Positions 2,716-59,026 of a stretch of DNA of 64,000 nucleotides are shown here, in pieces. Under the pieces are notes generated by a model. The model did not search any database, had not been told where the DNA came from, and worked only from the letters and a program-made list of their open reading frames with translations. How positions within the stretch are numbered: position 1 is the first letter of the stretch; the number at the start of each line of letters is the position of its first letter. The stretch is from Candidatus Omnitrophota bacterium. Lineage in GTDB: Bacteria; Omnitrophota; Gorgyraeia; Gygaellales; Profunditerraquicolaceae. The translations under genes were made by a program, and so were the position numbers. The stretch is from positions 25,083-89,082 of the forward strand of contig JAKLGJ010000003.1 of assembly GCA_022710715.1 (NCBI GenBank), written 5' to 3'.

Positions 2716-2717
2716 GT

Positions 2718-42004: not shown

Positions 42005-42006
42005 CG

Positions 42007-42237: not shown

Positions 42238-42249
42238 GTTTTCAATGCC

Positions 42250-42840
42250 TCCTACTAGCTACATACGCAAAGATTTGGAAAACTGACGGAAATATTTTCA
42301 TTTTTTTCGACCCTCTACTAGCTACATACGACGTTTTTTGTAAAACTGCCGGAAATTTCTTCACTTTCTTCACTACTTTCGCTCCCCTAAGCGTATATTC
42401 CGGATTTTTCCGGAAAGTGTCGGGAATATTTGTCCCCTCATAGGTGATTACGCAAAATTTCCAAAAGTGTCGATGCTTTTGGCAAACTTTTTTCACCTTC
42501 CATAGGTAAAGACGACATTTTTTCCAAAGTGTCGGGGCCCTCTACCGTAGGTATTACGTTTTTAGGTCCAAAATTTAGCATGATCCTTCAACTTTCCTTC
42601 CCAAGGCGTATATACAACCTTTTTTGTCAAAGTGTCCCACCCCTCACCGTAGTTATATGCTTTGGAAGGCAAGATTTCGCATCCCCCACATATGAACACG
42701 CAAAAAATCGAAAAGTGTAATACCCCCAAGCCCTCCCATAGGTGATTACAGAAAAAATGCGAAAGTGTAGGGGCCCTCACCTATGTACACGCAATTTTTT
42801 TCAAAGTGTCGAACTACCCTTCTACTAACCCATACAGGAA
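42250..42840. repeat. iteron-like direct repeat array (candidate replication origin)
   Basis: Two 63-bp-spaced copies of ctactagctacatacg...gaaaactg.cggaaat. Then seven degenerate units with an AAAGTGT(C/A) core followed by (C)ATAGGT / CGTAGGT at 40-100 bp spacing, at 42414, 42464, 42526, 42628, 42713, 42763 and 42803. Confidence 0.55.
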
Positions 42841-43125
42841 CTTTCCCGAAACTGGCGTAACTATTTGCGCCTAAAAAAGAAAAAGCCACTTCCGGCCAAT
42901 TGACTGGAAATGGCTTTTCCCGCACAGGCGAAACAGTGATCAGCTGTCTCGTAAGTCTATTTTAATTTTATAACAGCGCGAATCGTTCTCAAGATGGTCG
43001 TTACCAAGATATGGAATAAATCGCGCTTACGATTCCATCATATAACAACGCCAATCTTTCTCAAGGGGGTCGTTACTACAAAATAGCAAAAATTCAGAGA
43101 GGGTTAAAAGCGGGGATTTTGAAAC

Positions 43126-43506
43126 TTAATCTTCATGCTCAAGCGGCTTTTCCGGGATCATATCGTAAACCATGGTCTGGATCTCATATTCAAACCATTC
43201 CTGAAACACCTTCCACGACCTGTCCTTTGGCCACATCTCAGGATCCGTATACCAGCCGCCAAGCTCGTGCTCAAATATTTCTACGCAATGCTTCTTCAGA
43301 AACTTTTCGAACTTCTCATTCTCCTCATAGGCCGGGATCAAATACACATGCTTTGAATCAAAACCGTCGGTCTCAACATCCTCCGGCTTCATCTCATGTT
43401 CCGGCCCGTCATACTCCTTGCTGGTGTAGACCAACCAGTCAATGAAAGGCTTTTTCAGCTTCACGATCAAAGCGGCGCGGTTGATGTCGGGAAAATATTG
43501 TTCCAT
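43126..43506 (-). CDS. hypothetical small acidic protein (last gene of the 13-gene array)
   Basis: 126-aa ORF that directly abuts the stop of the TPR gene. Confidence 0.4.
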   Translation of the reverse strand: MEQYFPDINRAALIVKLKKPFIDWLVYTSKEYDGPEHEMKPEDVETDGFDSKHVYLIPAYEENEKFEKFLKKHCVEIFEHELGGWYTDPEMWPKDRSWKVFQEWFEYEIQTMVYDMIPEKPLEHED

Positions 43507-46362
43507 TTAGCTGATCGGGTAATTTAGTTTTATCCACTGATCAATTTTCTTGTTAACACTATGCATAAGGTGCTCGGCTAAACCAAGTTTCTTAGCAAGG
43601 ACTTGGCCAAACAGCTTGATAATTTTTTGAGGTGATCCACGTTTCGCCAATAATCCTATAATTAGATACAAATATCTATCCTTGATTTCATCGGGCAATG
43701 TCTCAATAAGTATCATCTTCATAAAATCTGTTAACACTGCAAATAACGACTCAACGGATGTTTCCTTGGAATCAAGAACGACGACAGCCATGTCAAATGC
43801 ATTGCCTGACTGTATCTGGAAATTATCTTTTTCTGCATAATAAAAAAGCATTTTTGCGGATATAGAAAGATAAAAATAACCAATCTTCATCAATTCGAGT
43901 ATTTTGTCGCAGTAGTCGTTTTCGGCCAGGGCTCCTTTTTGCAGAGCAACTGCAAGAAAATTCTGAATGCCAAAAGATTCGATTTTATGCTCGTTGCGAA
44001 TTAATTCTCTGAAGAAGACGTCATCACAAAACAATGGTATTTGTTTTTCGACGCACGATTGGATCGAATATATATAGGGCAATCCCAGTATTTTTTCTTT
44101 ACCTTTAAAACTATCATCCAATGGATGCTCTAATCCTATTGTTTTGAAATCCTGCGAATTTCGTATTTTTTCAAGAAAATCAATTTTCATTTTAATATTT
44201 TCAGCAGAGATTTCTTGTCGAAAGGCTTTTCCTTCTCGCGAGAAAATCGTTGTTAGCCCCTCGTCCTTGCTTTTGCTTAACTCCATAATCTCCATATCCA
44301 GCTCATCAAGCGTGGCTTTAAGAACATACACTTCGGAAAACATCTTCAATGGCAAATACAACAAATCCAAAAAGCCTAACGTAAACAATGCGATCGGCTC
44401 AATGATGGCCTTATTAGAATTAAGAACGATCTCCTGCTCTTTTCTTTGCTCAAGAGCACTTCCGTTAGCACAATAAAGCTTAGATCCTTGACCAATAAGT
44501 GCGCCCCAACAGACGAATAGGCTCCTTCCAGAAAAAGCAGAAAGCGCGCCAATGGTAATATTTTTTGATAAATACATTTCCATTATTTTCGTTGATCTGT
44601 CCGATGCTTTACTCAACATATCCTTCAGTCTTTCCGGACTAGCTTCAACTTTCCAAATTGCCTTATTATCAGGGAAAGAAATGTTAAAGTTATCTAAAAT
44701 ATTCTGGAAGGCTTTCACGTATTTACTTTTAATCTCAACTATCTTGATAACGTCATCTGCACCGTATTCATTTTTAACTATTATTTCGTCCATAACCCTT
44801 TTCCCGTAAAGTGCCTTGCCCAAACCGGAATCCTTATATAGCTCGAATTTGGCAATCGACGATTTAGGATTTGCAGTAATCAAGTATTCTTGATCGTGTC
44901 CATTCTTTTTAATCTTCACAAAGAAATTTTCGCGAACAGTTTCGGAATCTAACATTTCGCTCTTTTTATCTTTTCGGCTTGTAAACGTGTAAATATAAAA
45001 CAGTTGGATCTCCGGATTATTGAAATCGATTTCCAACGCTTTAAATAATTGCTTTATAGCTTCGTCATGGTTTTGGATTTTTAAGAATGCTCTCGCCAAA
45101 ATGAGGAAAGAATCCTTGTCTTCAACTTCATCTTTAACCTCAGATAGCAGTTTTATTCCCGCATCCTTTTCCTTTCCTATATCAATCATGACTTTGGCAT
45201 AATTAAGTTTATGACGAATATTCTTTGGCTCACGCTTCGACAGTTCGAGGTATAAAGACATAGCGTCATCTAGTTGATCCATTTCCTCATAAATGGCCGC
45301 TTCCAACTCGAACGTAAAAGGAACAAACTTTCCTGATTTTCTAAGATTTTGGCAAATAGTTAAACATTTCTCGAGGTTCTTGCTTCTATGCTCTTTTGAT
45401 TTGTAAAGACAAATTAAATAATCCCGCAATACATCATCAAACAATGACTCCGAAATAAATGTTTCATATAACGGTATCGCCTTATCATATGCCCCAATAC
45501 TTTTAAAATGCCTCGCTAATTCGATTTCTGCTATGTTTTTTTCTAACCCAACAGAGTTTTGTCTTGCTTCAAGAGACAACTCTTCAAACGCTTTGACATT
45601 TCCTTGGCTTCTTTTCAGTTCTGCCTCTGCCAGCAGAATTCTTGGATTTCTCCCAAACTTTAAATAGAGATTGTCGACTATTTTTTGTGCTTCATCATAA
45701 GCCGCTTTCTTGCTTAAACATTCAATCATGAGTATCCCGGGGATAAGATCCTTTTCAGCCTCACCGTCATAATGCTTTCTTATTGCCTCAATGGCCTCAT
45801 CTACCTTGGAATCAGGACGCTCTAAATAACACGAAACTAAAATCGGAAAGATCTCATCTTTGTTGATACCTTTTTCTATCGCACAAATAAAATCTTTAAT
45901 CGCATCATCTGGTGATTTCCGCAAGGTATTAAGCCGCGCACGATTTGCATAGGCCGCCGCACTATCCGGATTAAGCACGATCGCCGCATTGATATCCTCA
46001 AAAGCTTTTGTAAAATCATCTAATATTATCCTGACGCTGGAGCGATTTATATACGCGTCTTCCAAGACGCCCTTCTTTTCTGAATCTTTTAATAAATCAA
46101 TCCCTTTACTTAATAGCCGTTCCGCCTCTTTCAGCTCTTCTATATGTTCTAGCAAAAGCCCAAATCGCCAAACCCTTTCCTTCATGATTGACTCAAGCAG
46201 ATATGAGCCAAACGAGAAATAGTTTTCGGCAATACCCGGATCAGCATCAATGGCACTTTGAAAATATTGCTTAGCATTTTTCCTATCGCCTTTATCGGCA
46301 TAGGCTATTGCAATATTCAACAATGCTCCGCTATCTTTTTGGAATCTTTTATCTATATTCAT
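43507..46362 (-). CDS. large TPR-repeat protein (951 aa), no NTPase motif seen
   Basis: Many TPR-like helix pairs (AIAYADKGDRKNAKQYFQSAIDADP etc.). Its start overlaps the upstream stop by 4 bp. Confidence 0.55.
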   Translation of the reverse strand: MNIDKRFQKDSGALLNIAIAYADKGDRKNAKQYFQSAIDADPGIAENYFSFGSYLLESIMKERVWRFGLLLEHIEELKEAERLLSKGIDLLKDSEKKGVLEDAYINRSSVRIILDDFTKAFEDINAAIVLNPDSAAAYANRARLNTLRKSPDDAIKDFICAIEKGINKDEIFPILVSCYLERPDSKVDEAIEAIRKHYDGEAEKDLIPGILMIECLSKKAAYDEAQKIVDNLYLKFGRNPRILLAEAELKRSQGNVKAFEELSLEARQNSVGLEKNIAEIELARHFKSIGAYDKAIPLYETFISESLFDDVLRDYLICLYKSKEHRSKNLEKCLTICQNLRKSGKFVPFTFELEAAIYEEMDQLDDAMSLYLELSKREPKNIRHKLNYAKVMIDIGKEKDAGIKLLSEVKDEVEDKDSFLILARAFLKIQNHDEAIKQLFKALEIDFNNPEIQLFYIYTFTSRKDKKSEMLDSETVRENFFVKIKKNGHDQEYLITANPKSSIAKFELYKDSGLGKALYGKRVMDEIIVKNEYGADDVIKIVEIKSKYVKAFQNILDNFNISFPDNKAIWKVEASPERLKDMLSKASDRSTKIMEMYLSKNITIGALSAFSGRSLFVCWGALIGQGSKLYCANGSALEQRKEQEIVLNSNKAIIEPIALFTLGFLDLLYLPLKMFSEVYVLKATLDELDMEIMELSKSKDEGLTTIFSREGKAFRQEISAENIKMKIDFLEKIRNSQDFKTIGLEHPLDDSFKGKEKILGLPYIYSIQSCVEKQIPLFCDDVFFRELIRNEHKIESFGIQNFLAVALQKGALAENDYCDKILELMKIGYFYLSISAKMLFYYAEKDNFQIQSGNAFDMAVVVLDSKETSVESLFAVLTDFMKMILIETLPDEIKDRYLYLIIGLLAKRGSPQKIIKLFGQVLAKKLGLAEHLMHSVNKKIDQWIKLNYPIS

Positions 46363-47336
46363 CTTCCACCCTTCTCGGCATAAAGCTCAATAGCCTCATC
46401 AAGGCGTCCACCGGCTCGCAACAACATGGCTTTAAGATTGATACAGTCATTATTATCCGGTTCCAATGAAATTGCGGCGTCGATAAACGGCAACCCTTCC
46501 AACGGCTTATCATCAAATAGACTTGCAAGCGCTCTATTCTTGCAAGCAATCACGGATTTTTTTCCCAAAATATCAAATGCCAACTTAAAATTAATAGCGG
46601 CAGATTTTCTATCCCCCAACGCCGCTTGACATGCTCCCAAGTTGTTATGAACCTTAAACCTTGCCATAATAGGAACTTGCCCATCAGATTCAAACGCTTT
46701 TAACAGCCCTTCATATATGACCTTTGCCGTACCAAATTTTTCCTTGTCTAATAGGATTTTGGCCTCATCTATGTTTTTCTTATATTTTGAACTGGCTAGT
46801 TCCGCATCGCTATCTATCGCCAAAACTGCCGGTGGTTCTAAAGACGCGCTTTTCTTTGCTTGAGATGCAACGGCGCCTAGAACATTATCCTGTTTGAGTA
46901 TCGACAATATTTCGTTTACACCATTAAGGGTTGCTTCTGAAGTTTGAGCGCTCGAAATAGGAACATTTTCAGATTCAGGTAGCGTTGCGCCAAAGTGCTC
47001 AAGAAATTTTGAAACAATTTTATTAACTGTGGCTTCTGTTTCATTCCCAAAGTCAGCGCCACAATTAATCAGGCTTTGGCGCAGTTCTGCGGTAACAATT
47101 TTAGGATTAGTTCGGTAATTAGTCTTAAGCAATCTAACAAGTTGGCTGTTCTCGCCGAAAGACGATCTCAACAAGTAATCTATCGATTCAATTTGCAAAT
47201 CAATCCCTGTCTTGCTGATTGAAATACTTATGCTCATCAGCAAGGGATCCTTCTTAAAAAGCCACTTTAACGACTTATCTAGCCCATGCTTAATCGCATG
47301 CCCAATAATCAATTGCTGCAACCACAAAAAATTCAT
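46359..47336 (-). CDS. hypothetical protein with C-terminal TPR repeats
   Basis: 325-aa ORF. The C-terminus AKVIYEGLLKAFESDG...AISLEPDNNDCINLKAMLL is TPR-like. Confidence 0.45.
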   Translation of the reverse strand: MNFLWLQQLIIGHAIKHGLDKSLKWLFKKDPLLMSISISISKTGIDLQIESIDYLLRSSFGENSQLVRLLKTNYRTNPKIVTAELRQSLINCGADFGNETEATVNKIVSKFLEHFGATLPESENVPISSAQTSEATLNGVNEILSILKQDNVLGAVASQAKKSASLEPPAVLAIDSDAELASSKYKKNIDEAKILLDKEKFGTAKVIYEGLLKAFESDGQVPIMARFKVHNNLGACQAALGDRKSAAINFKLAFDILGKKSVIACKNRALASLFDDKPLEGLPFIDAAISLEPDNNDCINLKAMLLRAGGRLDEAIELYAEKGGR

Positions 47337-47363
47337 CAGAGTCCTCTTTTATAAAATCCGCGA

Positions 47364-48152
47364 TTATTTTAGTGGCGTGGTACATGTGCCATCGCTATCG
47401 GTACGAAATACCTTAGTGCTATTTGTCCTATATCGCTGAAGGGCTGTGTTACTAGGAAGATTATCAAAAACACCTGACTGAGTTGAAATAATCGTATCTC
47501 TGGGCGATACGGCTTTTATAAAATCCAAATTTGCACCGTTCTCAGAACCATGATGACTTGCACGTAAAACATGGCAATTAGATAGCTTCCAATCGGCCAT
47601 AATGAGTTCGAGCTCAGAATCAGATGCATCTCCGCAGACTAAAAAATTATTGGCAGGACTAGAAACCCAGACGACAAGACTTGCATCATGGCACTCTCGT
47701 GTTTCATTATTATTTACATTCTTTCGTGGCCCCAAGACAAGGAATTCACAGTCGGAAAACTTTTTTCTTACATCTTTCGTGCAAGTAAACCTTTTTTGAT
47801 TATCCGGTACCAGTGCATCCTTCAGCTTGAGGTATTCATTCCAATCATCTAACGACAAGGAATTATCCCCGTGCCTGCGTTGATATGGGGATCCCCAGAA
47901 TTCAGCGACAGTGAAATTACCTACCAAATCCTCCATCCCCAAATAGTGATCGTGATGTGGGTGCGTGATAATCAGCAAATCTATATAAGTTTTCCCGATA
48001 GTCTGTTTTAAATAATTGGCAATGTTTGTTGGTTTTGATGCTCCGTTACTGAAACGTCTATACCCGCAATCTATAACAACAAGATCATTGTCCATCTCAA
48101 AAATTGCGCAATCCGCACACCCGACATTTAAAAAATGAGCTTTAAACGACAC
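47364..48152 (-). CDS. ComEC-type MBL-fold metallo-hydrolase (stand-alone, putative nuclease)
   Basis: ITHPHHDHYLG (HxHxDH) and the ASHHGSENG motif typical of the ComEC/Rec2 beta-lactamase-like domain. Confidence 0.6.
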   Translation of the reverse strand: MSFKAHFLNVGCADCAIFEMDNDLVVIDCGYRRFSNGASKPTNIANYLKQTIGKTYIDLLIITHPHHDHYLGMEDLVGNFTVAEFWGSPYQRRHGDNSLSLDDWNEYLKLKDALVPDNQKRFTCTKDVRKKFSDCEFLVLGPRKNVNNNETRECHDASLVVWVSSPANNFLVCGDASDSELELIMADWKLSNCHVLRASHHGSENGANLDFIKAVSPRDTIISTQSGVFDNLPSNTALQRYRTNSTKVFRTDSDGTCTTPLK

Positions 48153-48155
48153 TTC

Positions 48156-49259
48156 CTATACTCCTATCTTCTTTAATAGGTTTTCAGCATTTGAGTCCAT
48201 GTATACTTTGGGCGTTCCACCAGTGCCCTCAAAAGAAATCAAAATATGATGACCATTTCGCGTGCTTACAGAAAAGCAATCTTCGGTCTCCCCGTCAATA
48301 TCAACGCTTAACCCAGAGGCCCCTTCTGATGATTGGTATCTGCTGTCAATCGATCCATCTTTATCGTCTCCGTGCCGCTTATCAGAAATCACAACCAATG
48401 CAGGTTTATTGTTTTTCATAGAAAGAAACAAGTCTTCAGAAAATCCCGATTCTAATCCGTGATGTGGTGCGATGAGAATTGACAGGCCGTAATCTTTTAG
48501 CAACTTCTTTAATGATGGCTGGTCACCAGAAACAGAGTGCCATTCTGGATGTTCAGAACTTTTTTGCCTGTCGAATATCGTGTAACGCTTTTCAAGCCCT
48601 TTCCCTTCATTTAATAAATGTTTTAGGCAATCAGGTGTTATGTCACCGGGAATCAGCATCGTATGGATTCCATGTCGATAAAAAAGCACTAAGCTCGTCC
48701 CATTTCCATAATCTTGATCATTTTTAGGATGAAGTTCATTTACAACTGGCGGCCTCACATAGAAAAGACCGTACTCGAGATTTGGAACAGACCGCGAAGA
48801 CTCATAACAAATTGTTTGTAGTGGCAATGTCCTAGAAGAATAAAGCTCTTTGTATAGCTTTATATTTTCCTCACTCCCCTCAGGGTTCTTTATTCGCTCC
48901 CAATCAAGCGCCTCGGGTTTTGCGGAACCATCCGTCTTATCATGTGGACAAGTATGGAGAGAAGAATAAAAAAGCGAGTTCTTGCCATCTTTTGATGCAA
49001 GCGAGACTATTTCCGAAATATGATCTGCATGCGGATGCGAAAGAATTGTTTGGGCAACCTTGCATTTTTTGTAATCATCGAGATGCGGGATTACGTGCTT
49101 AGACAGAAATTCGGTGGGGCTGAATTCTTGGCTACACCCAAAATCATATAAGATTCCTTGGTTCAAACCTGTCCGGATAAAAATACTTAATCCACGACCA
49201 ACATTGAATACCCAAATAAAACTTTTGATCGTTTGGGCCCATTGAGGGACTTTTGCCAT
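48156..49259 (-). CDS. ComEC-type MBL-fold metallo-hydrolase paralog
   Basis: SHPHADHISE and LIAPHHGLESG motifs. 367 aa. Confidence 0.6.
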   Translation of the reverse strand: MAKVPQWAQTIKSFIWVFNVGRGLSIFIRTGLNQGILYDFGCSQEFSPTEFLSKHVIPHLDDYKKCKVAQTILSHPHADHISEIVSLASKDGKNSLFYSSLHTCPHDKTDGSAKPEALDWERIKNPEGSEENIKLYKELYSSRTLPLQTICYESSRSVPNLEYGLFYVRPPVVNELHPKNDQDYGNGTSLVLFYRHGIHTMLIPGDITPDCLKHLLNEGKGLEKRYTIFDRQKSSEHPEWHSVSGDQPSLKKLLKDYGLSILIAPHHGLESGFSEDLFLSMKNNKPALVVISDKRHGDDKDGSIDSRYQSSEGASGLSVDIDGETEDCFSVSTRNGHHILISFEGTGGTPKVYMDSNAENLLKKIGV

Positions 49260-49268
49260 ATGCTCACC

Positions 49269-49922
49269 TTATTCCTTGCCAAAAACAGCCGCCGAAGCAG
49301 ATTTATTTTCACGCGAATTTAAATAGCCTATCCCACTGAATAGTTGAATCGCGCAGACCAAAACACACGAAATCGCTATGGTTATTATTGTTTGCCCAGC
49401 GACATATAAAATTACCGCTAATAATGCTGAATTTAGAATTCCCACAAGATACAGCCACCACGATTGAGAACTTAAAATATTGAAGAAAGGCGGCTTTGCG
49501 CAGTTGGTATACATTTTACTTTTGTTCTCAAAACCCAAAGGCTTGGCTGAAAGGAATAATCCCCGCTGTTCGTTGATATACCGCATACAAAAAACAAAAT
49601 AAACCCTATTCCTGACGATCAAAAAGAACATACAAAGACCGAATATAAAAGCAATAGTCAACCCAACAATCAACGCGGCTTTTATATCCAACCCCTTGTC
49701 GATGGAGTACTGATAAAGACCGATCGCGATACCAGCAATTGTCGTATAAAATGTTGCCAGAAATTTAAAAACATCCACTATCTGCGCATCGTAATATCTG
49801 ACTTGGTCAAAGCATTGATTGAAATCATTCTGCAAGAAATCGACGGCCGCTTTCTCCAGCTCCGTATTCTTATCATTGCTCATAACGCCTCCTCTAAATT
49901 TATCCGCGAAAACTTCATACAA
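49269..49922 (-). CDS. membrane protein (about 4 TM)
   Basis: Hydrophobic helices. Its start overlaps the hsdS stop. Confidence 0.45.
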   Translation of the reverse strand: MYEVFADKFRGGVMSNDKNTELEKAAVDFLQNDFNQCFDQVRYYDAQIVDVFKFLATFYTTIAGIAIGLYQYSIDKGLDIKAALIVGLTIAFIFGLCMFFLIVRNRVYFVFCMRYINEQRGLFLSAKPLGFENKSKMYTNCAKPPFFNILSSQSWWLYLVGILNSALLAVILYVAGQTIITIAISCVLVCAIQLFSGIGYLNSRENKSASAAVFGKE

Positions 49923-51252
49923 CCAGCTCCCCGCGGAAGGCTTTGGCTAAAATTGACTGCTCGAGCTTGTCCGTATAGCTTTTTGACTTGATATATCTCT
50001 CGACAAAACCATCAAGCGCACTGAAGCTCGATTTAACTTTACTAACGATCTGATCCTGCTCCGCTTTAGGCGCAAAAACAAAAGGCAATTCTCTGACTCG
50101 TTGACAATTAAGGGCCTGCGGGCCAGACCCACTGCCAAAACTTCTGTTATTTTCATATTGATAATGAAACCAATACCAAAGATATTCGGGATTTACCCGT
50201 CCATGGGCTATTTGAACGGCCGCAATGTTCTGATTTATTGCGGCCTCAATATTAAGAATTGCAGATTGCCCTCTAGTTTTTCCCTCACCTATCATCGCTA
50301 TCAAAACTGTACCCGTAGGAAATAATTTACTTGAGCAGTTATCCAATCCTTCCTGCGTTATCCTTTCGCGAGATGCGCTAATTTTATTATTTCGCACTTC
50401 TCCAGAACTTATCCATGGTATTGAACCATTCCAATATTTGGTAATTTTTCGCGATGGAGTGCTCCCGTTGTTTACAACCCCGATAAACCCGATACAACAC
50501 GCCACCCAAGAAGAAGGAAAATTGAACTGCTCTTCATAGCTCGCTAAAGAAATTTTAGTAATTTCCTCAAAGTTTTTCTTTTCGCGGTTTGTTATTTCTG
50601 ACTTTAGAATAAACTCTCTTATTAAAGCGAGGTCATCTTCAGCGTTTAACGTGTTGTTTTCTATCCTCCACGTCTTCGTCAGCTCACCGGAGAAAGCCGC
50701 GGCAAGGACAGATTGACGAAAACGACTCAAGATCACAGGAATTGTGTCGAGGCGGGATTGGGCGTCTTTGACTTTTGCCAGCAGACTATCGAGCTTGTCT
50801 GCAATGCTCTTTTGTTCTTCTTCATCGGAAGGAAACGAAATCTCGGCAGTCTTAAGGAAATTCTTGTTGATATGCTGAAGCCCTGTACCAGTACTGGTTT
50901 CAAGAATAAAGTTCTTGCTTCTCCGTATAAAATATTCAAGAAACTTGGTATTTAATCCATTTTTAGGCGACAAGACAGCCATTGTGGAGCCAACTGCGCC
51001 AGTCATTCCGCTGGCACATTTGCCTATACTTCCATCCCAAACCAGTAAAACATCCTCTTTTTTTGCTCTGGGTACTTTGGGATCATTGGTAAATGACCGA
51101 GCCGGTTTACCCTCTAATTCATCAATTAAAATATAAGGATCATATCCTTTCTTTTCATGGCTGATGACGGCGGCAGGTTTTTTCCCTTTACGAGAAGAAA
51201 CTACATCCTTTAATGGACTTGAAATCCATCCCTTGGGCAATTTATTCTCCAT
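49915..51252 (-). CDS. hsdS: type I restriction-modification specificity subunit
   Basis: MENKLPKGWISSPLKDVV is an HsdS TRD N-terminus. Two-TRD architecture with conserved central and C-terminal helices. Confidence 0.75.
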   Translation of the reverse strand: MENKLPKGWISSPLKDVVSSRKGKKPAAVISHEKKGYDPYILIDELEGKPARSFTNDPKVPRAKKEDVLLVWDGSIGKCASGMTGAVGSTMAVLSPKNGLNTKFLEYFIRRSKNFILETSTGTGLQHINKNFLKTAEISFPSDEEEQKSIADKLDSLLAKVKDAQSRLDTIPVILSRFRQSVLAAAFSGELTKTWRIENNTLNAEDDLALIREFILKSEITNREKKNFEEITKISLASYEEQFNFPSSWVACCIGFIGVVNNGSTPSRKITKYWNGSIPWISSGEVRNNKISASRERITQEGLDNCSSKLFPTGTVLIAMIGEGKTRGQSAILNIEAAINQNIAAVQIAHGRVNPEYLWYWFHYQYENNRSFGSGSGPQALNCQRVRELPFVFAPKAEQDQIVSKVKSSFSALDGFVERYIKSKSYTDKLEQSILAKAFRGELVV

Positions 51253-52648
51253 TACTCTCCAGCTCCGCTACGATTTCCTTGAGGCTATCAACAACCGTTT
51301 CAAGCTCTGTAATAGCTTCTGATGCCAAGACCTGCGGCTCCGGCAAGTCCTCCGGATCATCTAACGATTCATCCTTTAGCCATGTTATATCCAGTTTATA
51401 ACCTCGATCCTTAATCTCCTTAATATTGAACCGGTGAAAACGGCCATCAACGCCCGAATCTGTTCGCTTGCTTTGGCCGTTGGGATCCGTGCCATAGCAC
51501 TTCTCAAATTCTTTGAAATGTTCAGAGGTAAGCGGCCGGTCTTTTTTGGTAATCCCGGGCACATTGGAACGGCCGTCAAATATCCAGACATTCTCCGTAG
51601 GCAAGCCCTTCTGGAAGAAAATCACGTTCGCCTTGACTCCTTGGCTGTACGGCGTAAATGTTCCTCTGGGCAGGCGCAAAATCGTGTGCAAGTTGCAATC
51701 CTGCGTCAGGATCTCAATCACCTCTCCGGCCTTGTCTTCAAAAAGGCAGTTATCCGGCAAAACCATAGCCGCACGGCCTCCGGGTCGTAGCACATTCACG
51801 ACATGCTGAATAAAGTTGAGCTGTTTGTTGCTCGTTGAAATAGTAAAATCATCTCTCTCCGGAGCTTGATTCGCGCCCTTGGTACCAAACGGTGGATTCG
51901 TAAGAATGCAATCGTATCGTGTTCCTTTTAACGACTCATAAATTGAGTCGCCGAGGTAAATATCCGCGTGAATTCCGTGCAAGTATAAATTCATCAAAGC
52001 AAGGCGGCGCGGCCGGGCAACAAGCTCTGTGCCAGTATAAACTTTCGTTGTGATGCGCTTGGCATCATCCCGCTCAAGACTACCCTTGGTTTGCTCCATC
52101 AACCACTCGTAAGCGCAAACCAAAAAACCCCCGGTGCCTGCCGCGGGGTCATGAATAATAAAATCCTTGGACTTGCGAGGATCCGGCTTCATGCATGTGA
52201 CGATTGACTGAATAAGAACGCGCGGGGTGAAATACTGACCGGCCCCCTTCTTGCCTTCTGATGCGGACTTCTCAAGCAATCCTTCATAAGCGGCCGCTTT
52301 GACATCCACATTCAAACTTGTCCATTCGATCTCATCGATCAGGTTGATAAGCTTCTTTAAGTTGACCGGATTCGCAAATTTCGAGATCGCTCCGGCATAA
52401 ATATCCCCAAGCGTGCCTTTTTGTTTGCCGAGGCCGCGTAAAGCATCCACATAAAAATCAGTTAAATCTGTTCCGGACTTCTCGCGCAAGACTGGCCATG
52501 AATATTCCTTAGGAATATCCGCGCCTTTCTCCTCCGCCATTTTTAAGAACAGCAAATACGTCAGCTGTTCGATATAATCCCCGTAATCCACACCGTCATG
52601 GCGTAGCGTGTGACAAAATCCCCATAATTTTCCGACTACATCGCTCAT
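51242..52648 (-). CDS. hsdM: type I restriction-modification N6-adenine DNA methyltransferase subunit
   Basis: HsdM N-terminal domain, AdoMet motif DPAAGTGGFL, catalytic LTNPPFG. Confidence 0.85.
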   Translation of the reverse strand: MSDVVGKLWGFCHTLRHDGVDYGDYIEQLTYLLFLKMAEEKGADIPKEYSWPVLREKSGTDLTDFYVDALRGLGKQKGTLGDIYAGAISKFANPVNLKKLINLIDEIEWTSLNVDVKAAAYEGLLEKSASEGKKGAGQYFTPRVLIQSIVTCMKPDPRKSKDFIIHDPAAGTGGFLVCAYEWLMEQTKGSLERDDAKRITTKVYTGTELVARPRRLALMNLYLHGIHADIYLGDSIYESLKGTRYDCILTNPPFGTKGANQAPERDDFTISTSNKQLNFIQHVVNVLRPGGRAAMVLPDNCLFEDKAGEVIEILTQDCNLHTILRLPRGTFTPYSQGVKANVIFFQKGLPTENVWIFDGRSNVPGITKKDRPLTSEHFKEFEKCYGTDPNGQSKRTDSGVDGRFHRFNIKEIKDRGYKLDITWLKDESLDDPEDLPEPQVLASEAITELETVVDSLKEIVAELESNGE

Positions 52649-55335
52649 GTAAGCACCGCCTCATTTATCTCTTTTAAGAGTTCATCCAATTTGCCGTCAA
52701 AAAGACGGTTGAGTTTTGAATAATTCATTCCCTGTCTTGTAAAAATGGGCAAAGTATCGATATCATCCTTCTCGATGAGCAAATTAGTCACCAAGTGATA
52801 GCGAATATGCTCAAGCCACGCGCCTTGCGCTTCTGAAAATTGATGCTTGGCTTTTATCTTCGACAAAGCCCGATCAACACGGCTTTCAACGGTTAGAAGC
52901 TCGTCATTTTTAGCCGCATGCCTGATAATAGAAACGATATCGGCGAGCTCCTTGTTATATGCCCGGCGAAGGTTGCGCTCGTTAAACTTATCAACCAGAT
53001 TATCCGGTCTGGTAGCCAGCTTCTCGCGTAACGCTTTAAGCTCATCCGTATGGAATTCTTTTGGCTTATTGAGCAGAATATCTATGGCGTCGATGTGTTC
53101 GGGATTCTTCCGGACAAACTCCTCAAACATCGCCAGATAATCGGCGGGCTTAAGTTCTTTACCGTCAGCCGCCCTGAATGTGACCTCTGAAGTGACAAGA
53201 TCCTCTGCAGTTTCCGCGATGACAAATTCTCGCTTGGGCCTCTGGTAATTTTCGCAGATATGAAGAAACGCTTCGCCCTGAAGAATCTTGATCGTCCCTG
53301 CCCAATTCTTGGAGAGTTTATCCTCCAGAGTCATGGCAAAATCAGCGATGTCTTCACCGATGATATAGTTGAATTCGTTCCTGCTCTCTTGCGTAATGTT
53401 CTTTGAAATACGCTGGAGCCGCTTGGATAAAACCTTGATGTTATACGCCCGGTTTTGATTATCGGCGATCGCCTGCACGATTTCGCGGATGGTTTTTGAG
53501 GGCTTAACCGGAGCTTCAGCAGTGATGCTGGTTGTCTTCTTAAAATACTCAAGCAACGTACCGCCAAAGCAATCAAAAACGGTGAAATGGGTTTTATTGA
53601 TCTCCGGGCATAGACGGGTGCCGCGGCCCATCATCTGCTCAAAGAGGATTCTTGATTTTACGGGACGCAAAAAAACAATATTTTCTATCTTCGGCACATC
53701 AACGCCGGTCGAAAGCATATCAACAGTCACAACAATGCCGGGATTCTGTCTGTTTCTAAACTCCCTGATGCGCTGAAGTGGCCTGTCAACTGTTGGACTG
53801 CCGGTTATCTTCTGAACAAATGAATCGCCACGGTTAAATTCATCCCGTAATATCTCAATCAATTGGTCGCAATGTGACGTATGCGGTAAATCATTGTCCG
53901 CGAAAATTAAGGTTTTGGGGAAATGCCCGATAGATGCTTCTTGAGCCAACAGGTATTTTTTGAGCTCCTGTACGATCTTTTTATTTCTGTCGGGCGCCGT
54001 CCACTCTGCCTCGTTACTTTCAGGCGCAAGGACACGCTCATCCTCGAGCACATCGAAAACCAACTGGCCGGTCTTAGTGTCTTTTAGCCCGACCTCTTCG
54101 CCTTCCTTTAAGAAGGCCCCGTTGAATGTAATATCGGATTTGATCGCAACCGCATCATAATCAACCAAGAAGCCTTCCTTTACAGCGCGTTCATATTCGT
54201 AGCGGAAAACAACTTCCTTGAAGAAGGCGGTTGTATGCGCCGCGGGCGTAGCAGTTAACCCAATCCTAATGCCATCGAAATGCTTCAAAGCTTCGCGCCA
54301 TTTGCTTTCTTCCTGCGCGGTATAGCCACGATGGCACTCATCGGCTATCACCACATCAAAAGCATGAATCGGGATATCCAGCTTTTCATCCGCGTCAGAT
54401 TCATCATCTAAATCGCCGGTTGATTGCCCAAACATACCGTCTTTACCGAAAAGATTAATGCCCATGCGCTGAATGGTACAGACATATACAAAGCTATCTC
54501 GACTTTTCGGATCTACCAGATACTCGGTAGGTAAAACTTTGGGATCATATTTGAGATCCTCATCCAGATCCTCGCGTCTGAAACGTTGGCTGTAAACCTC
54601 ATAACATTTGTCAAACTTGAGTCCCGGCTCTGCCTCAAAGCTCGCAAGCGCGGTCACCGCCTGAGCCGCCAGCGCGCGCCTATCCACAAGGAACAAAATG
54701 CGCTTAGCCAGTTTTGACTTCATCAGCCGGTATATCAGATTAATAATCGTGAATGTCTTGCCTGTGCCAGTTGCCATGGCAACAAGCATGTTGCGTTTTC
54801 GGTCAGCAATAGCCTGTTCAATCGCTGAAATGGCTTCAATCTGATATGGCCGCAAAAAGCGATTGTCTATTGCGTTGCTCTTGAGCCACGCTTTTGCGGC
54901 ATCTTCGTCCCTTGAAAGTAATTCCTCTAAAGCATTAGGCGTGTGAATCGCAGTAATCTCGCGGGAGCGGTTCAACGGATGGCGCAAATCCTGAAACCAA
55001 ATGATCTTGCCATTCGTGGAATAGATAAACGGAAGATGATACTCGCCAAATGTAAAAGGACTATTTTGAAATCCCCGGGCATATCGCTGTGCCTGTTGAA
55101 GCACATTTTGAGGCCCAACCGAAACTTTTTTCCCTTCGACCGCCGCCAAAGGACGCTTGTCATGAAAGAGAGCATAATCACAAGGGCCTGTTTGCGTAGG
55201 ATATTCCTCGACAGAGCCATGCCCATAATGCTTGCCTTCTTCAAAAGGAACGATCGGCCCCCACTTTGAATTGAGCAGGAGCTTGTCGATATATTGTTTT
55301 CTTGTTCTATGTTCGTTCCAATTTTGTTCAGACAT
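52645..55335 (-). CDS. hsdR: type I restriction endonuclease R subunit
   Basis: HsdR N-terminal nuclease domain. Helicase motifs LVAMATGTGKT and IADECHRG. 896 aa. Confidence 0.85.
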   Translation of the reverse strand: MSEQNWNEHRTRKQYIDKLLLNSKWGPIVPFEEGKHYGHGSVEEYPTQTGPCDYALFHDKRPLAAVEGKKVSVGPQNVLQQAQRYARGFQNSPFTFGEYHLPFIYSTNGKIIWFQDLRHPLNRSREITAIHTPNALEELLSRDEDAAKAWLKSNAIDNRFLRPYQIEAISAIEQAIADRKRNMLVAMATGTGKTFTIINLIYRLMKSKLAKRILFLVDRRALAAQAVTALASFEAEPGLKFDKCYEVYSQRFRREDLDEDLKYDPKVLPTEYLVDPKSRDSFVYVCTIQRMGINLFGKDGMFGQSTGDLDDESDADEKLDIPIHAFDVVIADECHRGYTAQEESKWREALKHFDGIRIGLTATPAAHTTAFFKEVVFRYEYERAVKEGFLVDYDAVAIKSDITFNGAFLKEGEEVGLKDTKTGQLVFDVLEDERVLAPESNEAEWTAPDRNKKIVQELKKYLLAQEASIGHFPKTLIFADNDLPHTSHCDQLIEILRDEFNRGDSFVQKITGSPTVDRPLQRIREFRNRQNPGIVVTVDMLSTGVDVPKIENIVFLRPVKSRILFEQMMGRGTRLCPEINKTHFTVFDCFGGTLLEYFKKTTSITAEAPVKPSKTIREIVQAIADNQNRAYNIKVLSKRLQRISKNITQESRNEFNYIIGEDIADFAMTLEDKLSKNWAGTIKILQGEAFLHICENYQRPKREFVIAETAEDLVTSEVTFRAADGKELKPADYLAMFEEFVRKNPEHIDAIDILLNKPKEFHTDELKALREKLATRPDNLVDKFNERNLRRAYNKELADIVSIIRHAAKNDELLTVESRVDRALSKIKAKHQFSEAQGAWLEHIRYHLVTNLLIEKDDIDTLPIFTRQGMNYSKLNRLFDGKLDELLKEINEAVLT

Positions 55336-55343
55336 ACTTTCCC

Positions 55344-56054
55344 TTATTTGTAAGCGACCAGCTCGCCGCTATCAGCGAAGCTGTGATACTGGTTATCCCC
55401 TATAATTAAGTGATCGAGCACTTTGACCTGCATCACATTGCCTGCCTGACAAAGCTCCCTTGTAAAATCTCTGTCTTCCTTGCTGGGTTTCGGATCCCCG
55501 GAGGGGTGATTATGCAGGCAGATGATTGACACAGCGAACTTCTGCAGAGCGCAGTGAATAATCTCTCTAACTATCGGCATCGCACGGTTAACTGTTCCGG
55601 ACGCCGTATCTGTGATGTCTATAATCCGATTGTTTGAATCGAGACAGACGACCTTGAAGACCTCTGTTTTGAGGTCGCGAAGCTGTGGCATGACGATATC
55701 CACAACATCCTTGGCAGAGGCGATCTTCTGCTTCCCGGTGGACACATCATCCTGTCGATAGCGCCGCCCGATTTCAAGCGCGGCCTGAATATGGGCGATC
55801 TTGGCCCCGCCTAAGCCCTTGAACTCCTTCCAGTCCCGGGCGTCGGTGTGAGCCATGTTGCGAAATGTACTGAATTTCTTGAGTATCTTGCGGGCGAGGT
55901 CAATGGCGCTGGTGCCAGCGGTGCCGGTACGAAGAAGAATGGCCAGAAGCTCTGAATTACTCAAAGCCCCCGCACCCTTTTTGAGGAGTTTTTCTCTCGG
56001 CCTGTCATCCTCCGGCCAAGACTTTATGCCTGATATTTTTCTTTCCTTCACCAT
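55344..56054 (-). CDS. RadC-like JAB/MPN domain protein
   Basis: WPEDDRPREKLLKKG HhH N-terminus and the JAMM motif HNHPSGDPKPSKED. Start set at the internal Met with a purine-rich SD. Confidence 0.7.
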   Translation of the reverse strand: MVKERKISGIKSWPEDDRPREKLLKKGAGALSNSELLAILLRTGTAGTSAIDLARKILKKFSTFRNMAHTDARDWKEFKGLGGAKIAHIQAALEIGRRYRQDDVSTGKQKIASAKDVVDIVMPQLRDLKTEVFKVVCLDSNNRIIDITDTASGTVNRAMPIVREIIHCALQKFAVSIICLHNHPSGDPKPSKEDRDFTRELCQAGNVMQVKVLDHLIIGDNQYHSFADSGELVAYK

Positions 56055-56110
56055 TCTTCTCTTCTCTGTTCTTCTCTTGAAGATTCCGCACACACTGTGT
56101 GCAGAATTTT

Positions 56111-56824
56111 TTATAACTGATTCGGCAATCCACCGTATAAATCCTTTGATAACTCCGATTGCCAGTATTCTTTTGTATCAACATCCATAATCGTCAGCTT
56201 GCCCGACCATCCTGCGCCGGTGTCCAAATCCCACACATTGCAAACATGAATCGGCTCAAGCGTTCTATAAAGCTCTGTTGTCGTATGTCCGATAAAAATG
56301 TCGTCATATTTTGTGATCTGGGCTTCCCGTCTATAATTAGCCGCCTCCCAAGCGTCTTTGAGTAAATCCCTGTCCCACACAAGTACCTGAGCGCTATTTT
56401 GTTCCAATGGCAAATCCGGCACAAAACCAGCGTGGACAAAAAGCTTATTCCCGACCTCCAACCAAAGATGTCCGCTTTTTAGGAAGTCGATATGCGTCTG
56501 CGGCATAGGCCCGCTGTTATACGAAGCCATGGTCCGGTCACCGCCTTGCTTCGTCCATATCTCCGGCTTGTCGCCTCTTAAGGCCCAGTCCAGCGCCCAC
56601 TGATCATGGTTGCCAATGATCAGATCGCAATACTTGATCTTTAATAACTCATCGATGCACTGCCTGACATCCGGATACCCATCGCAAACATCGCCCATCA
56701 CGATCAGGCGGTCTTTCTTATAATCGAACTTTGAGCGCTCAAAGCACTGCATCATCGCCTTGTAGGCGCCGTGGATGTCACCGATGGCATAGGTCTTCAT
56801 TCCCATCCCTTCGGAGATGTCCAT
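56111..56824 (-). CDS. PPP-family metallophosphoesterase (Ser/Thr phosphatase / ApaH-like)
   Basis: GDIHG ... GDVCDGY ... GNHD phosphoesterase motifs. Confidence 0.7.
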   Translation of the reverse strand: MDISEGMGMKTYAIGDIHGAYKAMMQCFERSKFDYKKDRLIVMGDVCDGYPDVRQCIDELLKIKYCDLIIGNHDQWALDWALRGDKPEIWTKQGGDRTMASYNSGPMPQTHIDFLKSGHLWLEVGNKLFVHAGFVPDLPLEQNSAQVLVWDRDLLKDAWEAANYRREAQITKYDDIFIGHTTTELYRTLEPIHVCNVWDLDTGAGWSGKLTIMDVDTKEYWQSELSKDLYGGLPNQL

Positions 56825-57711
56825 GTCTTATCAAACGCGACATTCTCACTAATCGCTATAACGGGCTCGATAAGGAAACGCTCTATTTCTTTGGCTGTAG
56901 CCGATAATGTTTCCGGCGCGTGTTGGATATCTCCCTTTTTCACAAAAGCGTTCCAGAGCGTCTGCCTGTCGGATTTCTCATCGTAAATCTCATCAGCAAA
57001 CAAAGGTTTATCATTAGGGATATCCGTCTTTCGATTGTTAAAGGTTTTCTTTATCGCGCTGGCGATACTTGCCCCCTTAAATTCAAATTGCCTCGTCATA
57101 AGCCAGATATCATAAAAGTCTTTCATTCTACTATTCAACAACCCGAGCTTGATCATGGCTTCAAATTTTTCACTGATCACGCTCTCTTGAGGGTATCCGT
57201 TTAAGTGCGGTTTTGGAAAATCCAAAATTACCGGATAATCAATGACCTTGGTTTTTGGATACACGATATCGCCAAAACCCACGTCAATCTGCATTGGGAT
57301 TTCCGCACGATCTAAAAAGCCTGTGAATTTCACGCGCACCCCTTCATAGTCCGCGTCTTCCTTAATCTTCACCCCTTTGACTGTTTGGGAATCAAACTTA
57401 AGCCCATCAGGATCCACGCTTGTTTCGCACACGTCTTTCATCACTTTTTCGATGGTTGCAACCTCGTTATCAAAACGGGCTAAGAAATCAATATCAAGAG
57501 TTGTGCGCCTGTCAGGTATCTGCCATACAGCGAACAAAAGCGCGCCCTTCAGGATAAATTTATCAGCATATTTTGATTTGCTGAACCGGTAGAGAAATCT
57601 TTCCATGCCGTAATACTGCATTACTTCCGCGAAAGGTCGATTTGTTTCCTGCGCTTTATTTTTAAGCCGAGCCTTGATTGAGGCTTCGATATTTTTTAAT
57701 TCTTTTTTCAT
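56797..57711 (-). CDS. nucleotidyltransferase AbiEii/AbiGii toxin family (type IV TA / abortive infection)
   Basis: FILKGALLFAVWQ...TTLDIDFLARF resembles the DUF1814 GG..L...DID signature. Overlaps the abiEi stop by 4 bp. Confidence 0.65.
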   Translation of the reverse strand: MKKELKNIEASIKARLKNKAQETNRPFAEVMQYYGMERFLYRFSKSKYADKFILKGALLFAVWQIPDRRTTLDIDFLARFDNEVATIEKVMKDVCETSVDPDGLKFDSQTVKGVKIKEDADYEGVRVKFTGFLDRAEIPMQIDVGFGDIVYPKTKVIDYPVILDFPKPHLNGYPQESVISEKFEAMIKLGLLNSRMKDFYDIWLMTRQFEFKGASIASAIKKTFNNRKTDIPNDKPLFADEIYDEKSDRQTLWNAFVKKGDIQHAPETLSATAKEIERFLIEPVIAISENVAFDKTWTSPKGWE

Positions 57712-58310
57712 AACATGGTCTCAAGTATAGGTTTAATAATTCTGTCAACGCGGCAAATTTTAGCATACTCCATAATATCCTTAGGTTTGACATGTTTCTC
57801 GGAAACAGCTATCTTAAGCGCTTCTCGGGCCACATTTGTTCCAATTCGGTTGCGAAACTTGAAACAATCGGCCACGGTCTTCGCAAGACTGTAAATCTTA
57901 ACTGGGTGCCCTTCAATCTCGTGTTTCTCCACGCCCGCCTTCCATGTGTCGGGTGAAAAGCTATAGAATTTTACAGGGGGATATTTTATTCTGTTCGCGC
58001 GTGATCCTGTGGGAATAGCTATATCCACAAACCGAGGTATTTCATTGGTCGCCCTATGGAAATATAGCGCGGATACGAGACAAATCACGCCCTTTGAGGT
58101 TTGAAGCGATGCGATGACATAATCTGGGTGAGATCCGATAGTATCCCCCACGAGCCTATACAGCCCCTTTCCTATTTTCTCAATCTTCTTTTCTTTTTCA
58201 TTTTTCTTGATTACATCGGGATGAAATCCAGCTTTTCGAATTGAAGAAAAGCGGGCCACTCCCCCATGTATCTTGAAATATTCAATTATTGTGTCTGTCT
58301 TTTCTCTCAT
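57708..58310 (-). CDS. AbiEi-family antitoxin / transcriptional regulator
   Basis: 200 aa with an N-terminal wHTH (IIEYFKIHGGVARFSSIRKAGFHPDVIKK), immediately upstream of the AbiEii gene. Confidence 0.6.
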   Translation of the reverse strand: MREKTDTIIEYFKIHGGVARFSSIRKAGFHPDVIKKNEKEKKIEKIGKGLYRLVGDTIGSHPDYVIASLQTSKGVICLVSALYFHRATNEIPRFVDIAIPTGSRANRIKYPPVKFYSFSPDTWKAGVEKHEIEGHPVKIYSLAKTVADCFKFRNRIGTNVAREALKIAVSEKHVKPKDIMEYAKICRVDRIIKPILETML

Positions 58311-58535
58311 TATGCCTCCGTACTTTATGTCAGCAGATGTGCATAAGTATATACATTTAGTCCGCTATTGTCAATGATTTTCTCAAGCCTTAAAAACATT
58401 ATCTAACTATGGATGTGGAATTTGCCGCGCCGATTGGCAAGGAATAAATTGGAGTTGCGAGCCTACCCCTCCCACATCAATAATATGCCATAACATGATT
58501 TAATGCAGATAGTTACAGATAATTTTTGAAGGCTA

Positions 58536-58965
58536 TTTTGTCACAAATACTATATACTTTTTGTGACAAGATCTTGAGGCTTAATGTTCACTGTTTAGTG
58601 AACATTAGGGCCTGAGTGAACATTAACGCTGGGCAGGTTTATTACATTTCTTGTAACATTCGCGCAGATTAAATGTCCACCGGGCTGAAATGTCTACTAT
58701 TTACGAGACATTTCGATTTAGTGGACATTTACGTGTCCATCCATGTCCATCAAAATGCCCTTTTTGGACCCTCCCGGACGCCCGCAGGATACCCCTAAAA
58801 CCGCCCATTTTCCGACGCTGGGCGCTTATTTAGGCCGGGTTAACCACTTATGCCCAAACCCTAAAAGTGATGGACATGGACATCGATTTTTTTGACCACT
58901 ATCACTGGCTCCTTGCGCCTCGCCCGACCCTCACCCAAACCCCCCTCCAAGGACCCGGAACCGCC
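58536..58965. promoter_or_regulatory. regulatory region B: operator-like palindromes plus diverged copy of repeat A
   Basis: TTGTCACAAA-N12-TTTGTGACAA at 58538-58569. AATGTTCACT-GTTT-AGTGAACATT at 58582-58605. GGACATTTACGTGTCC at about 58725. Then the roughly 200-bp homologue of 39540-39745. Confidence 0.5.
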
Positions 58966-59026
58966 TCCAAACATAAAAAAACCCTATGACCTCGCTTTTT
59001 AAAACGACCATAGGGATGAGTTGTTA

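Follow-up and report, generated by a model that had tools for sequence, protein, structure and literature searches.

A thirteen-gene array in an Omnitrophota genome is probably a mosaic defence island carried by an integrative element, with a two-gene TGP pair and a membrane protein-MBL cassette among its units

In the EcoprrI type I restriction-modification (RM) operon the gene prrC, which encodes an ABC-ATPase-like anticodon nuclease, sits between hsdS and hsdR. P4-like and PICI satellites are integrative elements in which a constant integrase and replication backbone is combined with hypervariable, co-directional defence cargo. Both are relevant to an array of 13 genes in a 64,000-nucleotide (nt) stretch, here called the window, of contig JAKLGJ010000003.1 from a Candidatus Omnitrophota bacterium. 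Of more direct relevance to two of these genes are the TGP proteins, which have a constant TPR-GreA/B-C-PIN core and, at the N-terminus, a variable effector or effector-associated (EAD) domain of about 13 alternative kinds, and which are mostly encoded by stand-alone genes (Kaur, Iyer, Burroughs, Aravind 2021, eLife, PMC8195603). For them, docking at the secondary channel of RNA polymerase, cleavage of extruded transcripts by the PIN domain and a back-up effector at the N-terminus have been proposed (PMC8195603). One of them, Agp of E. coli ECOR25, together with its small partner Bab, protects E. coli from T5 by abortive infection (Ibarlosa et al. 2024, bioRxiv 10.1101/2024.11.07.622273); Bab is a Bell-type membrane-targeting protein of 109 amino acids (aa), and a BASS11 amyloid motif that it shares with the Agp N-terminus couples the two (bioRxiv 10.1101/2024.11.07.622273). 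The reading of the array to which we assign a probability of roughly 0.8 is that it is a mosaic defence island of independently moving cassettes, the cargo of an integrative Omnitrophota element. The gene content, the mosaic structure and the mobile-element backbone can be seen directly in the window and its relatives.

An open reading frame (ORF) scan finds 13 minus-strand ORFs packed from 58310 down to 43126, at the same coordinates as in an earlier sequence-only reading whose claim of dense, one-directional packing is borne out. Proceeding from the AbiEi gene to that of the small protein AC126, the junctions are an overlap of 4, an overlap of 28, gaps of 17 and 8, overlaps of 4 and 11 and then, from the HsdS/TM217 junction on, an overlap of 8, gaps of 9, 3 and 27, an overlap of 4 and a gap of 0, i.e., no gap exceeds 27 nt and no overlap 28 nt, with the proviso that the HsdS/TM217 junction becomes a gap of 31 instead of an overlap of 8 if TM217 has the 204-aa ATG start of other gene callers. 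Counts of promoter-like and terminator-like sites across the array are not above those of shuffled controls, a result that speaks neither for nor against the single transcript proposed in that reading, and an Rfam scan of 37-60 kb gave no matches. Does such packing signify that the six genes following hsdS make up one module, as the same reading proposed? They are:

43126-43506, minus strand: AC126, small acidic protein of 126 aa at the border of cargo and backbone; no family match
43507-46362, minus strand: TGP951, a protein (TPR-GreA/B-C-PIN) of 951 aa; PF20698 at E = 3.7e-10, GreA_GreB at 0.0043 and many TPR matches
46359-47336, minus strand: TPR325, 325 aa, split-off N-terminal TGP module by comparison with a natural fusion
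47364-48152, minus strand: MBL262, second MBL-fold, ComEC-type predicted nuclease, 262 aa, facultative; ComEC_Rec2 at 1.3e-20, 6A-MBL at 2.9e-12
48156-49259, minus strand: MBL367, MBL-fold, ComEC-type predicted nuclease of 367 aa, core of its cassette; PADLOC PDC-M48B at 7.1e-17
49269-49922, minus strand: TM217, protein of 217 aa with four transmembrane (TM) segments; by hydropathy two TM, a loop and two TM

The complete set of six is confined to copies of the locus itself in other assemblies (L001-L006), which are Candidatus Omnitrophota metagenome-assembled genomes (MAGs) from anaerobic digester-type metagenomes; an exact-sequence look-up of the 951-aa protein returned only these copies and so provides no independent context. 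Approached from the MBL367 side, 44 genome and 80 metagenome loci, 107 when redundancy is removed, include none with TPR325, TGP951 or AC126. Approached from the other side, TPR325 and its TGP partner recur in six other contexts (L007, L008, L009/L012, L010/L011, L013 and L148/149) and in none of them is TM, MBL or AC126 present, not even in L013 where the pair is 96-97% identical. The reverse arrangement is seen in a sister element, L014: RadC-HsdR-HsdM-(different HsdS)-TM-MBL367-MBL262 at 94-98% identity, HsdS excepted, goes straight into non-coding backbone, and TPR325, TGP951 and AC126 are lacking. The units thus occur apart even at 94-97% identity. Failure of the six genes to co-occur elsewhere had been named in the sequence-only reading as the outcome that would speak against its module, and with the set confined to L001-L006 that is the outcome. 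On these comparisons the six genes split into three units: TM217 with MBL367 and, in some loci, MBL262; TPR325 with TGP951; and AC126. The cargo as a whole would then comprise AbiEi/AbiEii, a NinI-like phosphatase, RadC with a type I RM system, TM with one or two MBLs, the split TGP and AC126, and the tight co-directional packing would reflect serial insertion of cassettes in the one transcription direction of the element instead of one machine.

Directly 3' of the array is the backbone:

42238-43125, minus strand: non-coding backbone stretch with repeats, conserved in the sister elements L062 and L014
42007-42237, minus strand: DUF5659 gene (Pfam)
39875-42004, minus strand: primase-helicase of NrS-1/D5 type (Pfam; PHROG DNA primase at 1e-164)
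39009-39188, minus strand: excisionase-like helix-turn-helix (HTH) protein (PHROG excisionase at 1.5e-5)
37330-39009, minus strand: large serine recombinase, the integrase (Pfam; PHROG integrase at 1.5e-107)

The coding part, 37330-42237, also holds small ORFs. It is the presence beside the array of serine recombinase, primase-helicase, excisionase-like HTH and repeats that identifies the array as cargo of an integrative element, one that is probably self-replicating. Between 42250 and 42810, 5' of the DUF5659 and primase-helicase genes, there are 6-9 iteron-like direct repeats of ~36-47 nt with the core CATAGGTGATTACGCAAAAnTTnCnAAAGTGTC, conserved in L062 and L014, and these are probably its replication origin or control region. 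Two tandem 53-nt repeats at 42969-43093, each with a promoter-like TTGAGA-16-TATGAT/TAAAAT on the minus strand, are followed by a hairpin terminator at 42881-42918 whose stem sequence differs in L062 and L014 but whose hairpin is kept there; together, repeats and hairpin (42870-43100) might encode a short non-coding RNA of the element. In both sister elements the non-coding backbone begins directly after their differing last cargo genes. The backbone of L014 is much less like that of the window (integrase 80%, primase-helicase 55% identity) than is its 94-98% identical cargo block, a contrast suggesting that elements have exchanged cargo recently. In L062-65 the backbone is shared by gene order and domain content, its non-coding stretch is conserved, and the cargo is different (1241-5967): behind hsdR, in the slot that the window gives to TM-MBL and TGP, are genes for a 1270-aa nSTAND-type NTPase and a 302-aa protein. 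The latter two constitute another candidate defence pair. At the opposite end of the backbone the longest ORF of a radical-SAM (MiaB-like) gene, 36197-37429, shares 100 nt with the end of the serine recombinase gene (4 nt with the start that gene callers choose), and the 5' end of the radical-SAM gene seems to be the integration site of the element. GC content, 0.52-0.57 upstream of 37 kb, is down to 0.37-0.41 in the 43-50 kb interval and 0.44-0.49 in that of 50-58 kb, the low-GC stretch starting at ~38 kb beside the integrase. The likeness to P4-like and PICI satellites is in the conserved backbone and the variable slot for defence cargo; the differences are the serine recombinase, the NrS-1/D5-type primase-helicase, the Omnitrophota host and that no capsid-hijacking genes were seen in the window element. 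The sequence-only reading was right to see the stamp of a defence island here. To find such an island, with all genes in one direction, on an integrative element is ordinary in itself, and it is two of its cassettes that deserve closer attention.

The description of the 951-aa product as a TPR protein is right for its TPR part but overlooked its PIN domain and putative GreA/B-C domain. The TPR array, to which several TPR families match across residues 4-470, takes up ~1-470, N-terminal to a GreA/B-C-like segment at 474-545, and PF20698, the PIN-TPR-GreABC family, is at 654-789 where it scores 40.6 bits in relation to a cut-off of 27.8, i.e., above the gathering threshold; the PIN acidic residues E/D655, D686, E687, D780 and D781 are kept in eight relatives. 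These domains place the protein in the described, predicted TGP system, one relative of which has been validated. For the 325-aa protein, also termed a TPR protein, the term is appropriate for its C-terminal half (~140 residues) only. Alignment and AlphaFold2 (AF2) models give it a six-helix N-terminal domain (1-123), which is not TPR, then a disordered linker and a C-terminal TPR module (178-320). The C-terminal module is near-invariant (e.g., IACKNRALAS and PLEGLPFIDAAI) and the N-terminal half is far more variable. A profile of the TPR325 N-domain run on 1.84 billion representatives found nine proteins only; none of the Pfam effector/EAD families and solved folds matches that six-helix domain; PADLOC, NCBIfam and PHROGs yield no match for TPR325; and there are no relatives of it on IMG/VR viral contigs. 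A sequence search of solved structures found no TGP structure, a phage database had no match to TGP951, and a plasmid database only relatives below 23% identity that are annotated as hypothetical. Text matches to ‘GreA’ in DefensePredictor were rejected, being the word ‘greater’.

The TPR325 family is very rare, accounting at 90% identity for 16 clusters among 5.8 billion, their members being 323-357 aa with a start and stop of their own. In the window the TPR325 and TGP951 genes overlap by 4 bp, and in each of the six other contexts a 949-951-aa homologue of TGP951 is directly 3', again with a 4-bp overlap, the identity of the pair to its relatives ranging over these contexts from 46 to 97%. 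Its neighbours elsewhere are other defence genes: Thoeris ThsA/ThsB, a KAP NTPase, a different type I RM with GmrSD, an SNF2/methylase/ResIII set, UvrD with GIY-YIG, AbiEii and SocA-Panacea. Further, a natural fusion exists among the nine proteins of the N-domain search. Over residues 1-322 this 1282-aa protein, P0218, is similar to TPR325, and from 324 to 1282 it aligns with full-length TGP951 at 48% identity; it was found on two independent assemblies (L148/149), in a defence island. By this ‘Rosetta stone’ TPR325 is a detached N-terminal module of a TGP protein. TPR325 and TGP951 are one unit. The protein P0016 (L008, 10001-11074) has the same invariant TPR module behind an unrelated N-terminal domain of ~200 aa, and is encoded 5' of a 949-aa TGP protein, which is direct evidence of swapping of N-modules. 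That N-domain contains AGKAGDEKNDGY, is possibly nuclease-like and has no Pfam match.

How does the pair relate to its described counterparts? It has in common with TGP systems the TPR array and PF20698 of the core, a variable N-terminal module and a defence-island setting, and its GreA/B-C-like segment, though of sub-threshold score, is in the right position. It differs from them in that the N-module is not fused; it is on a separate 5' gene together with a near-invariant TPR piece of its own, and only in P0218 are the two joined. The first TPR match in TGP951 begins at residue 13, ahead of which no fused domain is seen and there is little room for an Agp-like leader. With Bab/Agp, the only experimentally validated relative, the resemblance is that of two genes, a small 5' partner and a TGP protein, the kinship of TGP951 and Agp being one by description. 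However, a ~110-aa Bell-domain protein with the BASS11 motif is not what precedes TGP951, though the motif itself was not searched for; the partner here is of 325 aa and ends in TPR, so that a TPR-mediated contact is more likely. As judged from these features the pair is a further two-gene TGP form, with a different partner and a new N-module. Following the model of Kaur et al., TGP951 would dock on RNA polymerase by its GreA/B-C domain and there sense or attack phage-directed transcription, its PIN domain cutting RNA, activities expected from what is known of the family. TPR325 would bind TGP951 via the invariant TPR module, through which the link between the two probably runs, and would supply a variable N-terminal output or adaptor domain of the sort that is N-terminally fused in other TGP proteins. 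Whether its own N-domain might be an adaptor, act at the membrane or be another type of effector is a matter of speculation.

The other cassette is that of TM217 and the MBL proteins. Hydropathy agrees with TM217 being a 4-TM protein, as had been noticed, and it has no match in Pfam, PADLOC, NCBIfam or PHROGs. The portrayal of its neighbours as ComEC-like MBL proteins is also sound, with the motifs SHPHADH...APHHG in MBL367 and THPHHDH...ASHHG in MBL262, and with ComEC MBL nuclease domains (PDB 9ic4, 30bt and 9vc6) as their nearest solved structures, MBL262 matching 9ic4 at 1.5e-7. The metal-binding residues H75, H77, D79, H80, H266 and H267 of MBL367 are invariant. The MBL367 family comprises 486 protein clusters, mostly from uncultivated phyla, and relatives of 50-90% identity are from Omnitrophota, Nitrospirota, Elusimicrobia, Planctomycetota, Acidobacteriota, Margulisiibacteriota and a Methanofastidiosum MAG; on IMG/VR viral contigs there are only two marginal MBL matches. 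In the close clade, defined by at least 57% identity and comprising 47 loci, a TM217 homologue adjoins MBL367 in 38, and 17 have a second MBL gene. TM217 and MBL367 form one unit. In distant MBL367 loci other small multi-TM proteins occupy the neighbouring position; the TM217 alignment was too variable to serve as a metagenome query.

Among the catalogued systems close to the cassette is PDC-M48, a PADLOC candidate in which a small membrane-type protein (A) is beside an MBL-fold hydrolase (B). PDC-M48B is matched by MBL367 (7e-17, with partial coverage of the model), by MBL262 (9.3e-14 and 1.3e-11) and by the second MBL of relatives (6e-24), whereas PDC-M48A is matched only by the distant partner in L053, and weakly (7e-4). 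PDC-M48 is itself an untested candidate for which no mention in the literature was found. PADLOC also ties the MBL proteins to the LmuA-type, DRT-associated and Avs1a MBL modules. By analogy with their family, the MBL proteins would be metal-dependent nucleases that degrade nucleic acid during infection, with TM217 as the membrane protein that would anchor or control them; membrane control, and a guarding of the RM system, are speculative. Next to a distant MBL367 relative, at L043 6949-11074, there is a further observation: the relative and its 4-TM partner come directly after a fused prokaryotic E2-E1(ThiF)-JAB protein, a ‘6A’-type ubiquitin-like system, and that partner matches Csx27, an accessory membrane protein of CRISPR type VI-B, at 4.3e-7.

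Are there better explanations? That the six genes, possibly with hsdRMS, are one new multi-component defence system in which TM and TPR proteins sense and MBLs effect would be in keeping with their single direction, tiny gaps and location in a single low-GC block at 43-50 kb, and also with the proposal by Kaur et al. (PMC8195603) that TGP proteins may hand over to back-up effectors, but with the units always apart outside L001-L006 we consider it very improbable. That TPR325 and TGP951 are the halves of a frameshifted fused TGP gene, now a pseudogene, gains something from the existence of the fused 1282-aa form and from the 4-bp overlap of the two ORFs, but the split form is the rule in 16 clusters with own start and stop and, in six contexts, with a 949-951-aa partner; moreover the near-invariance of the TPR module implies purifying selection on TPR325, and the pseudogene explanation is scarcely tenable. 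Barely credible is that the MBL genes are housekeeping genes for competence and DNA uptake, a split ComEC, which the sequence-only reading had itself raised as a way in which it could fail. ComEC MBL domains are, it is true, the closest solved relatives, NCBIfam gives partial ComEC_Rec2 matches, and the MBL sub-family with its HxHxDH and HH motifs is by sequence that of the ComEC C-terminal nuclease domain. However, TIGR00361 is matched over its positions 444-663 only, at 73 bits where the cut-off is 190, MBL367 and MBL262, soluble and stand-alone, lack an OB/DUF4131 domain as well as a competence TM or channel domain, TM217 has no family match, and the genes are on a mobile element amid RM, Abi and toxin-antitoxin (TA) genes and are patchy across phyla.

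A different sort of proposal sharpens the picture of one cassette without conflicting with the mosaic: TM-MBL(-MBL) would be a latent nuclease toxin coupled to RM as PrrC is to EcoprrI, restrained by the type I enzyme or triggered through it, and freed when a phage inactivates restriction. The likeness to hsd-prrC that was drawn earlier for all six genes fails for the six, though by analogy of position it may be retained for the three-gene TM-MBL-MBL cassette. An extra, latent-toxin-like gene by hsdS within a type I RM operon is found in the window and L014, where the cassette is directly 3' of hsdS, and in seven other loci (L017, L018, L021, L025, L073, L087 and L096) with the order hsdM-hsdS-TM-MBL(-MBL)-hsdR, the slot of prrC, this order spanning two HsdR families and two gene orders. 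The gene directly 5' of the cassette on the same strand is an RM gene in 9 of the 29 visible close-clade loci (8 hsdS, 1 BsuBI-type endonuclease; spacing -26 to +33 nt) as against 1/55 in the distant clade; RM genes turn up within 7 kb in 16 of the close clade's 47 loci, a lower bound given short contigs; and type II or IIG RM genes are beside the cassette in L019/20/22, L023, L055 and L114. Yet no neighbour is commoner in defence islands of any kind than an RM system, the 5' gene matched none of a limited RM query set in 20 of the 29 visible cases, the distant clade has no such association, and the proteins are unrelated to PrrC, Pfam, PADLOC and NCBIfam giving MBL-fold matches only and no PrrC, RloC or ABC-ATPase domain in the cassette. 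We hold coupling on the PrrC pattern to be unlikely, though far from negligible. Rather doubtful also is a bolder proposal in two parts: that TM-MBL is a widespread RM accessory, a second-line membrane-controlled nuclease guarding RM, which would be co-transcribed with hsdS and fire when restriction is disabled, its effector being unrelated to PrrC; and separately that TGP recruits output modules in trans via a TPR-TPR interface.

Several points weigh against the reading of the array as a mosaic of the cassettes described. The GreA/B-C match of TGP951 (PF01272, 474-545; E 0.0043) has 17.4 bits and is below its 26.9-bit cut-off, although an NCBIfam greA domain is matched at 2.9e-4 and the 48%-identical P0218 reaches 27.4 bits. 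TM217 has no PDC-M48A match (PADLOC, E up to 1), and profile-profile comparison (hhalign) of the distant TM partners with TM217 gives a probability of 0.8%, i.e., no detectable homology, in view of which only a common topology is claimed. Co-transcription of the cassettes and functional cross-talk among them may take place in this strain, and the TGP pair and TM-MBL cassette are predicted systems.

As to the small gene at the cargo border, AC126 was rightly called acidic (pI 4.65, with 30 D+E and 15 K+R) and has no match in Pfam, PADLOC, NCBIfam or PHROGs. Its family has 55 clusters. A 93% identical copy is behind the HsdR-nSTAND-302aa cargo of L062-65, a further copy is in a TA island (L061), and a 68% identical homologue (L058, 6001-6393) stands alone on a chromosome, with a transaldolase gene on one side and an Rrf2/IscS/NifU cluster on the other, from which it follows that the family is not confined to mobile elements. 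AC126 is absent from L013 and L014, and an ORF of the same length, 126 aa, that L148 has close to its fused TGP gene proved unrelated to it.

The remaining seven genes of the array, for which Pfam, PADLOC, NCBIfam and PHROG scans uphold the identities given earlier, are:

49915-51252, minus strand: HsdS, 445 aa; two Methylase_S domains
51242-52648, minus strand: HsdM, 468 aa; N6_Mtase at 2.1e-60
52645-55335, minus strand: HsdR, 896 aa; ResIII, EcoEI_R_C and HSDR_N
55344-56093, minus strand: RadC-like JAB protein, 249 aa; RadC at 6.8e-41, UPF0758_N at 4.8e-29
56111-56824, minus strand: calcineurin-like PPP phosphatase, NinI-like, 237 aa; Metallophos at 1.2e-10, PHROG NinI-like Ser/Thr phosphatase at 7e-46
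56797-57711, minus strand: AbiEii nucleotidyltransferase toxin, 304 aa; Pfam AbiEii at 5.7e-39, PADLOC at 1.7e-99
57708-58310, minus strand: AbiEi antitoxin and transcriptional regulator, 200 aa; PADLOC AbiEi at 1.4e-63, Pfam AbiEi_4 weak

AbiEi and AbiEii are neighbours with a 4-bp overlap, as is expected of the AbiE type IV TA/Abi system, and the best promoter-like site of the scan (58374-58346, minus strand, 11/12 positions matching) is just upstream of the AbiEi gene. The type I RM set is complete with its HsdR helicase-nuclease, HsdM N6-methylase and an HsdS with two target-recognition domains; from knowledge of these families, AbiE would act as toxin-antitoxin and the Hsd proteins would carry out type I restriction. 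Between the window and L014, HsdR and HsdM are 97-98% identical but HsdS (L014 6403-7599, window 49915-51252) is only 30% identical, and the specificity subunit has therefore been swapped. RadC is directly 5' of the type I RM genes also in L013 (75% identity) and L014 (95%), and travels with the RM block. The phosphatase has no PADLOC match and in L014 its slot is held by a Fic-like ORF.

Beyond the array, a non-coding stretch of ~650 nt 5' of abiEi (58380-58990) has several short repeats, both direct and inverted (TAATGTTCAC twice and GTGAACATTA, with ATGGACA and TGTCCAC motifs), which might serve as operators for AbiEi or as the element's other attachment site. Just outside, at 59027-59815, a 262-aa product has a domain like that of penicillin-binding transpeptidases and class D beta-lactamases (1.5e-29), and its gene is followed by a clear terminator. 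GC drops for a second time between 61000 and 64000, to 0.42-0.46, and this part includes a gene for an NTP_transf_8 nucleotidyltransferase at 62129-62821; possibly it is another foreign segment or the island continuing past the array.

That a large new multi-gene immune system is not upheld spares cloning effort on the wrong unit, and the part worth following is two little-studied cassettes, the split TGP pair and TM-MBL. The first is a two-gene form in the TGP family, of which only one member, Bab/Agp, has been tested so far. The split and fused versions of the pair, together with the invariant TPR piece, mark a likely interface of sensor and output, and make testable the notion of an RNA polymerase-docked sensor with swappable output. 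Should the rather doubtful recruitment in trans be correct, the pair would show that TGP proteins take interchangeable output modules via a dedicated TPR-TPR interface. The TM-MBL cassette, occurring as it does repeatedly after hsdS in RM operons of several types, is a candidate for back-up defence of a new, RM-linked class. The Omnitrophota element family itself, with its constant backbone and swappable cargo, is of use in the search for defence genes of uncultivated lineages.

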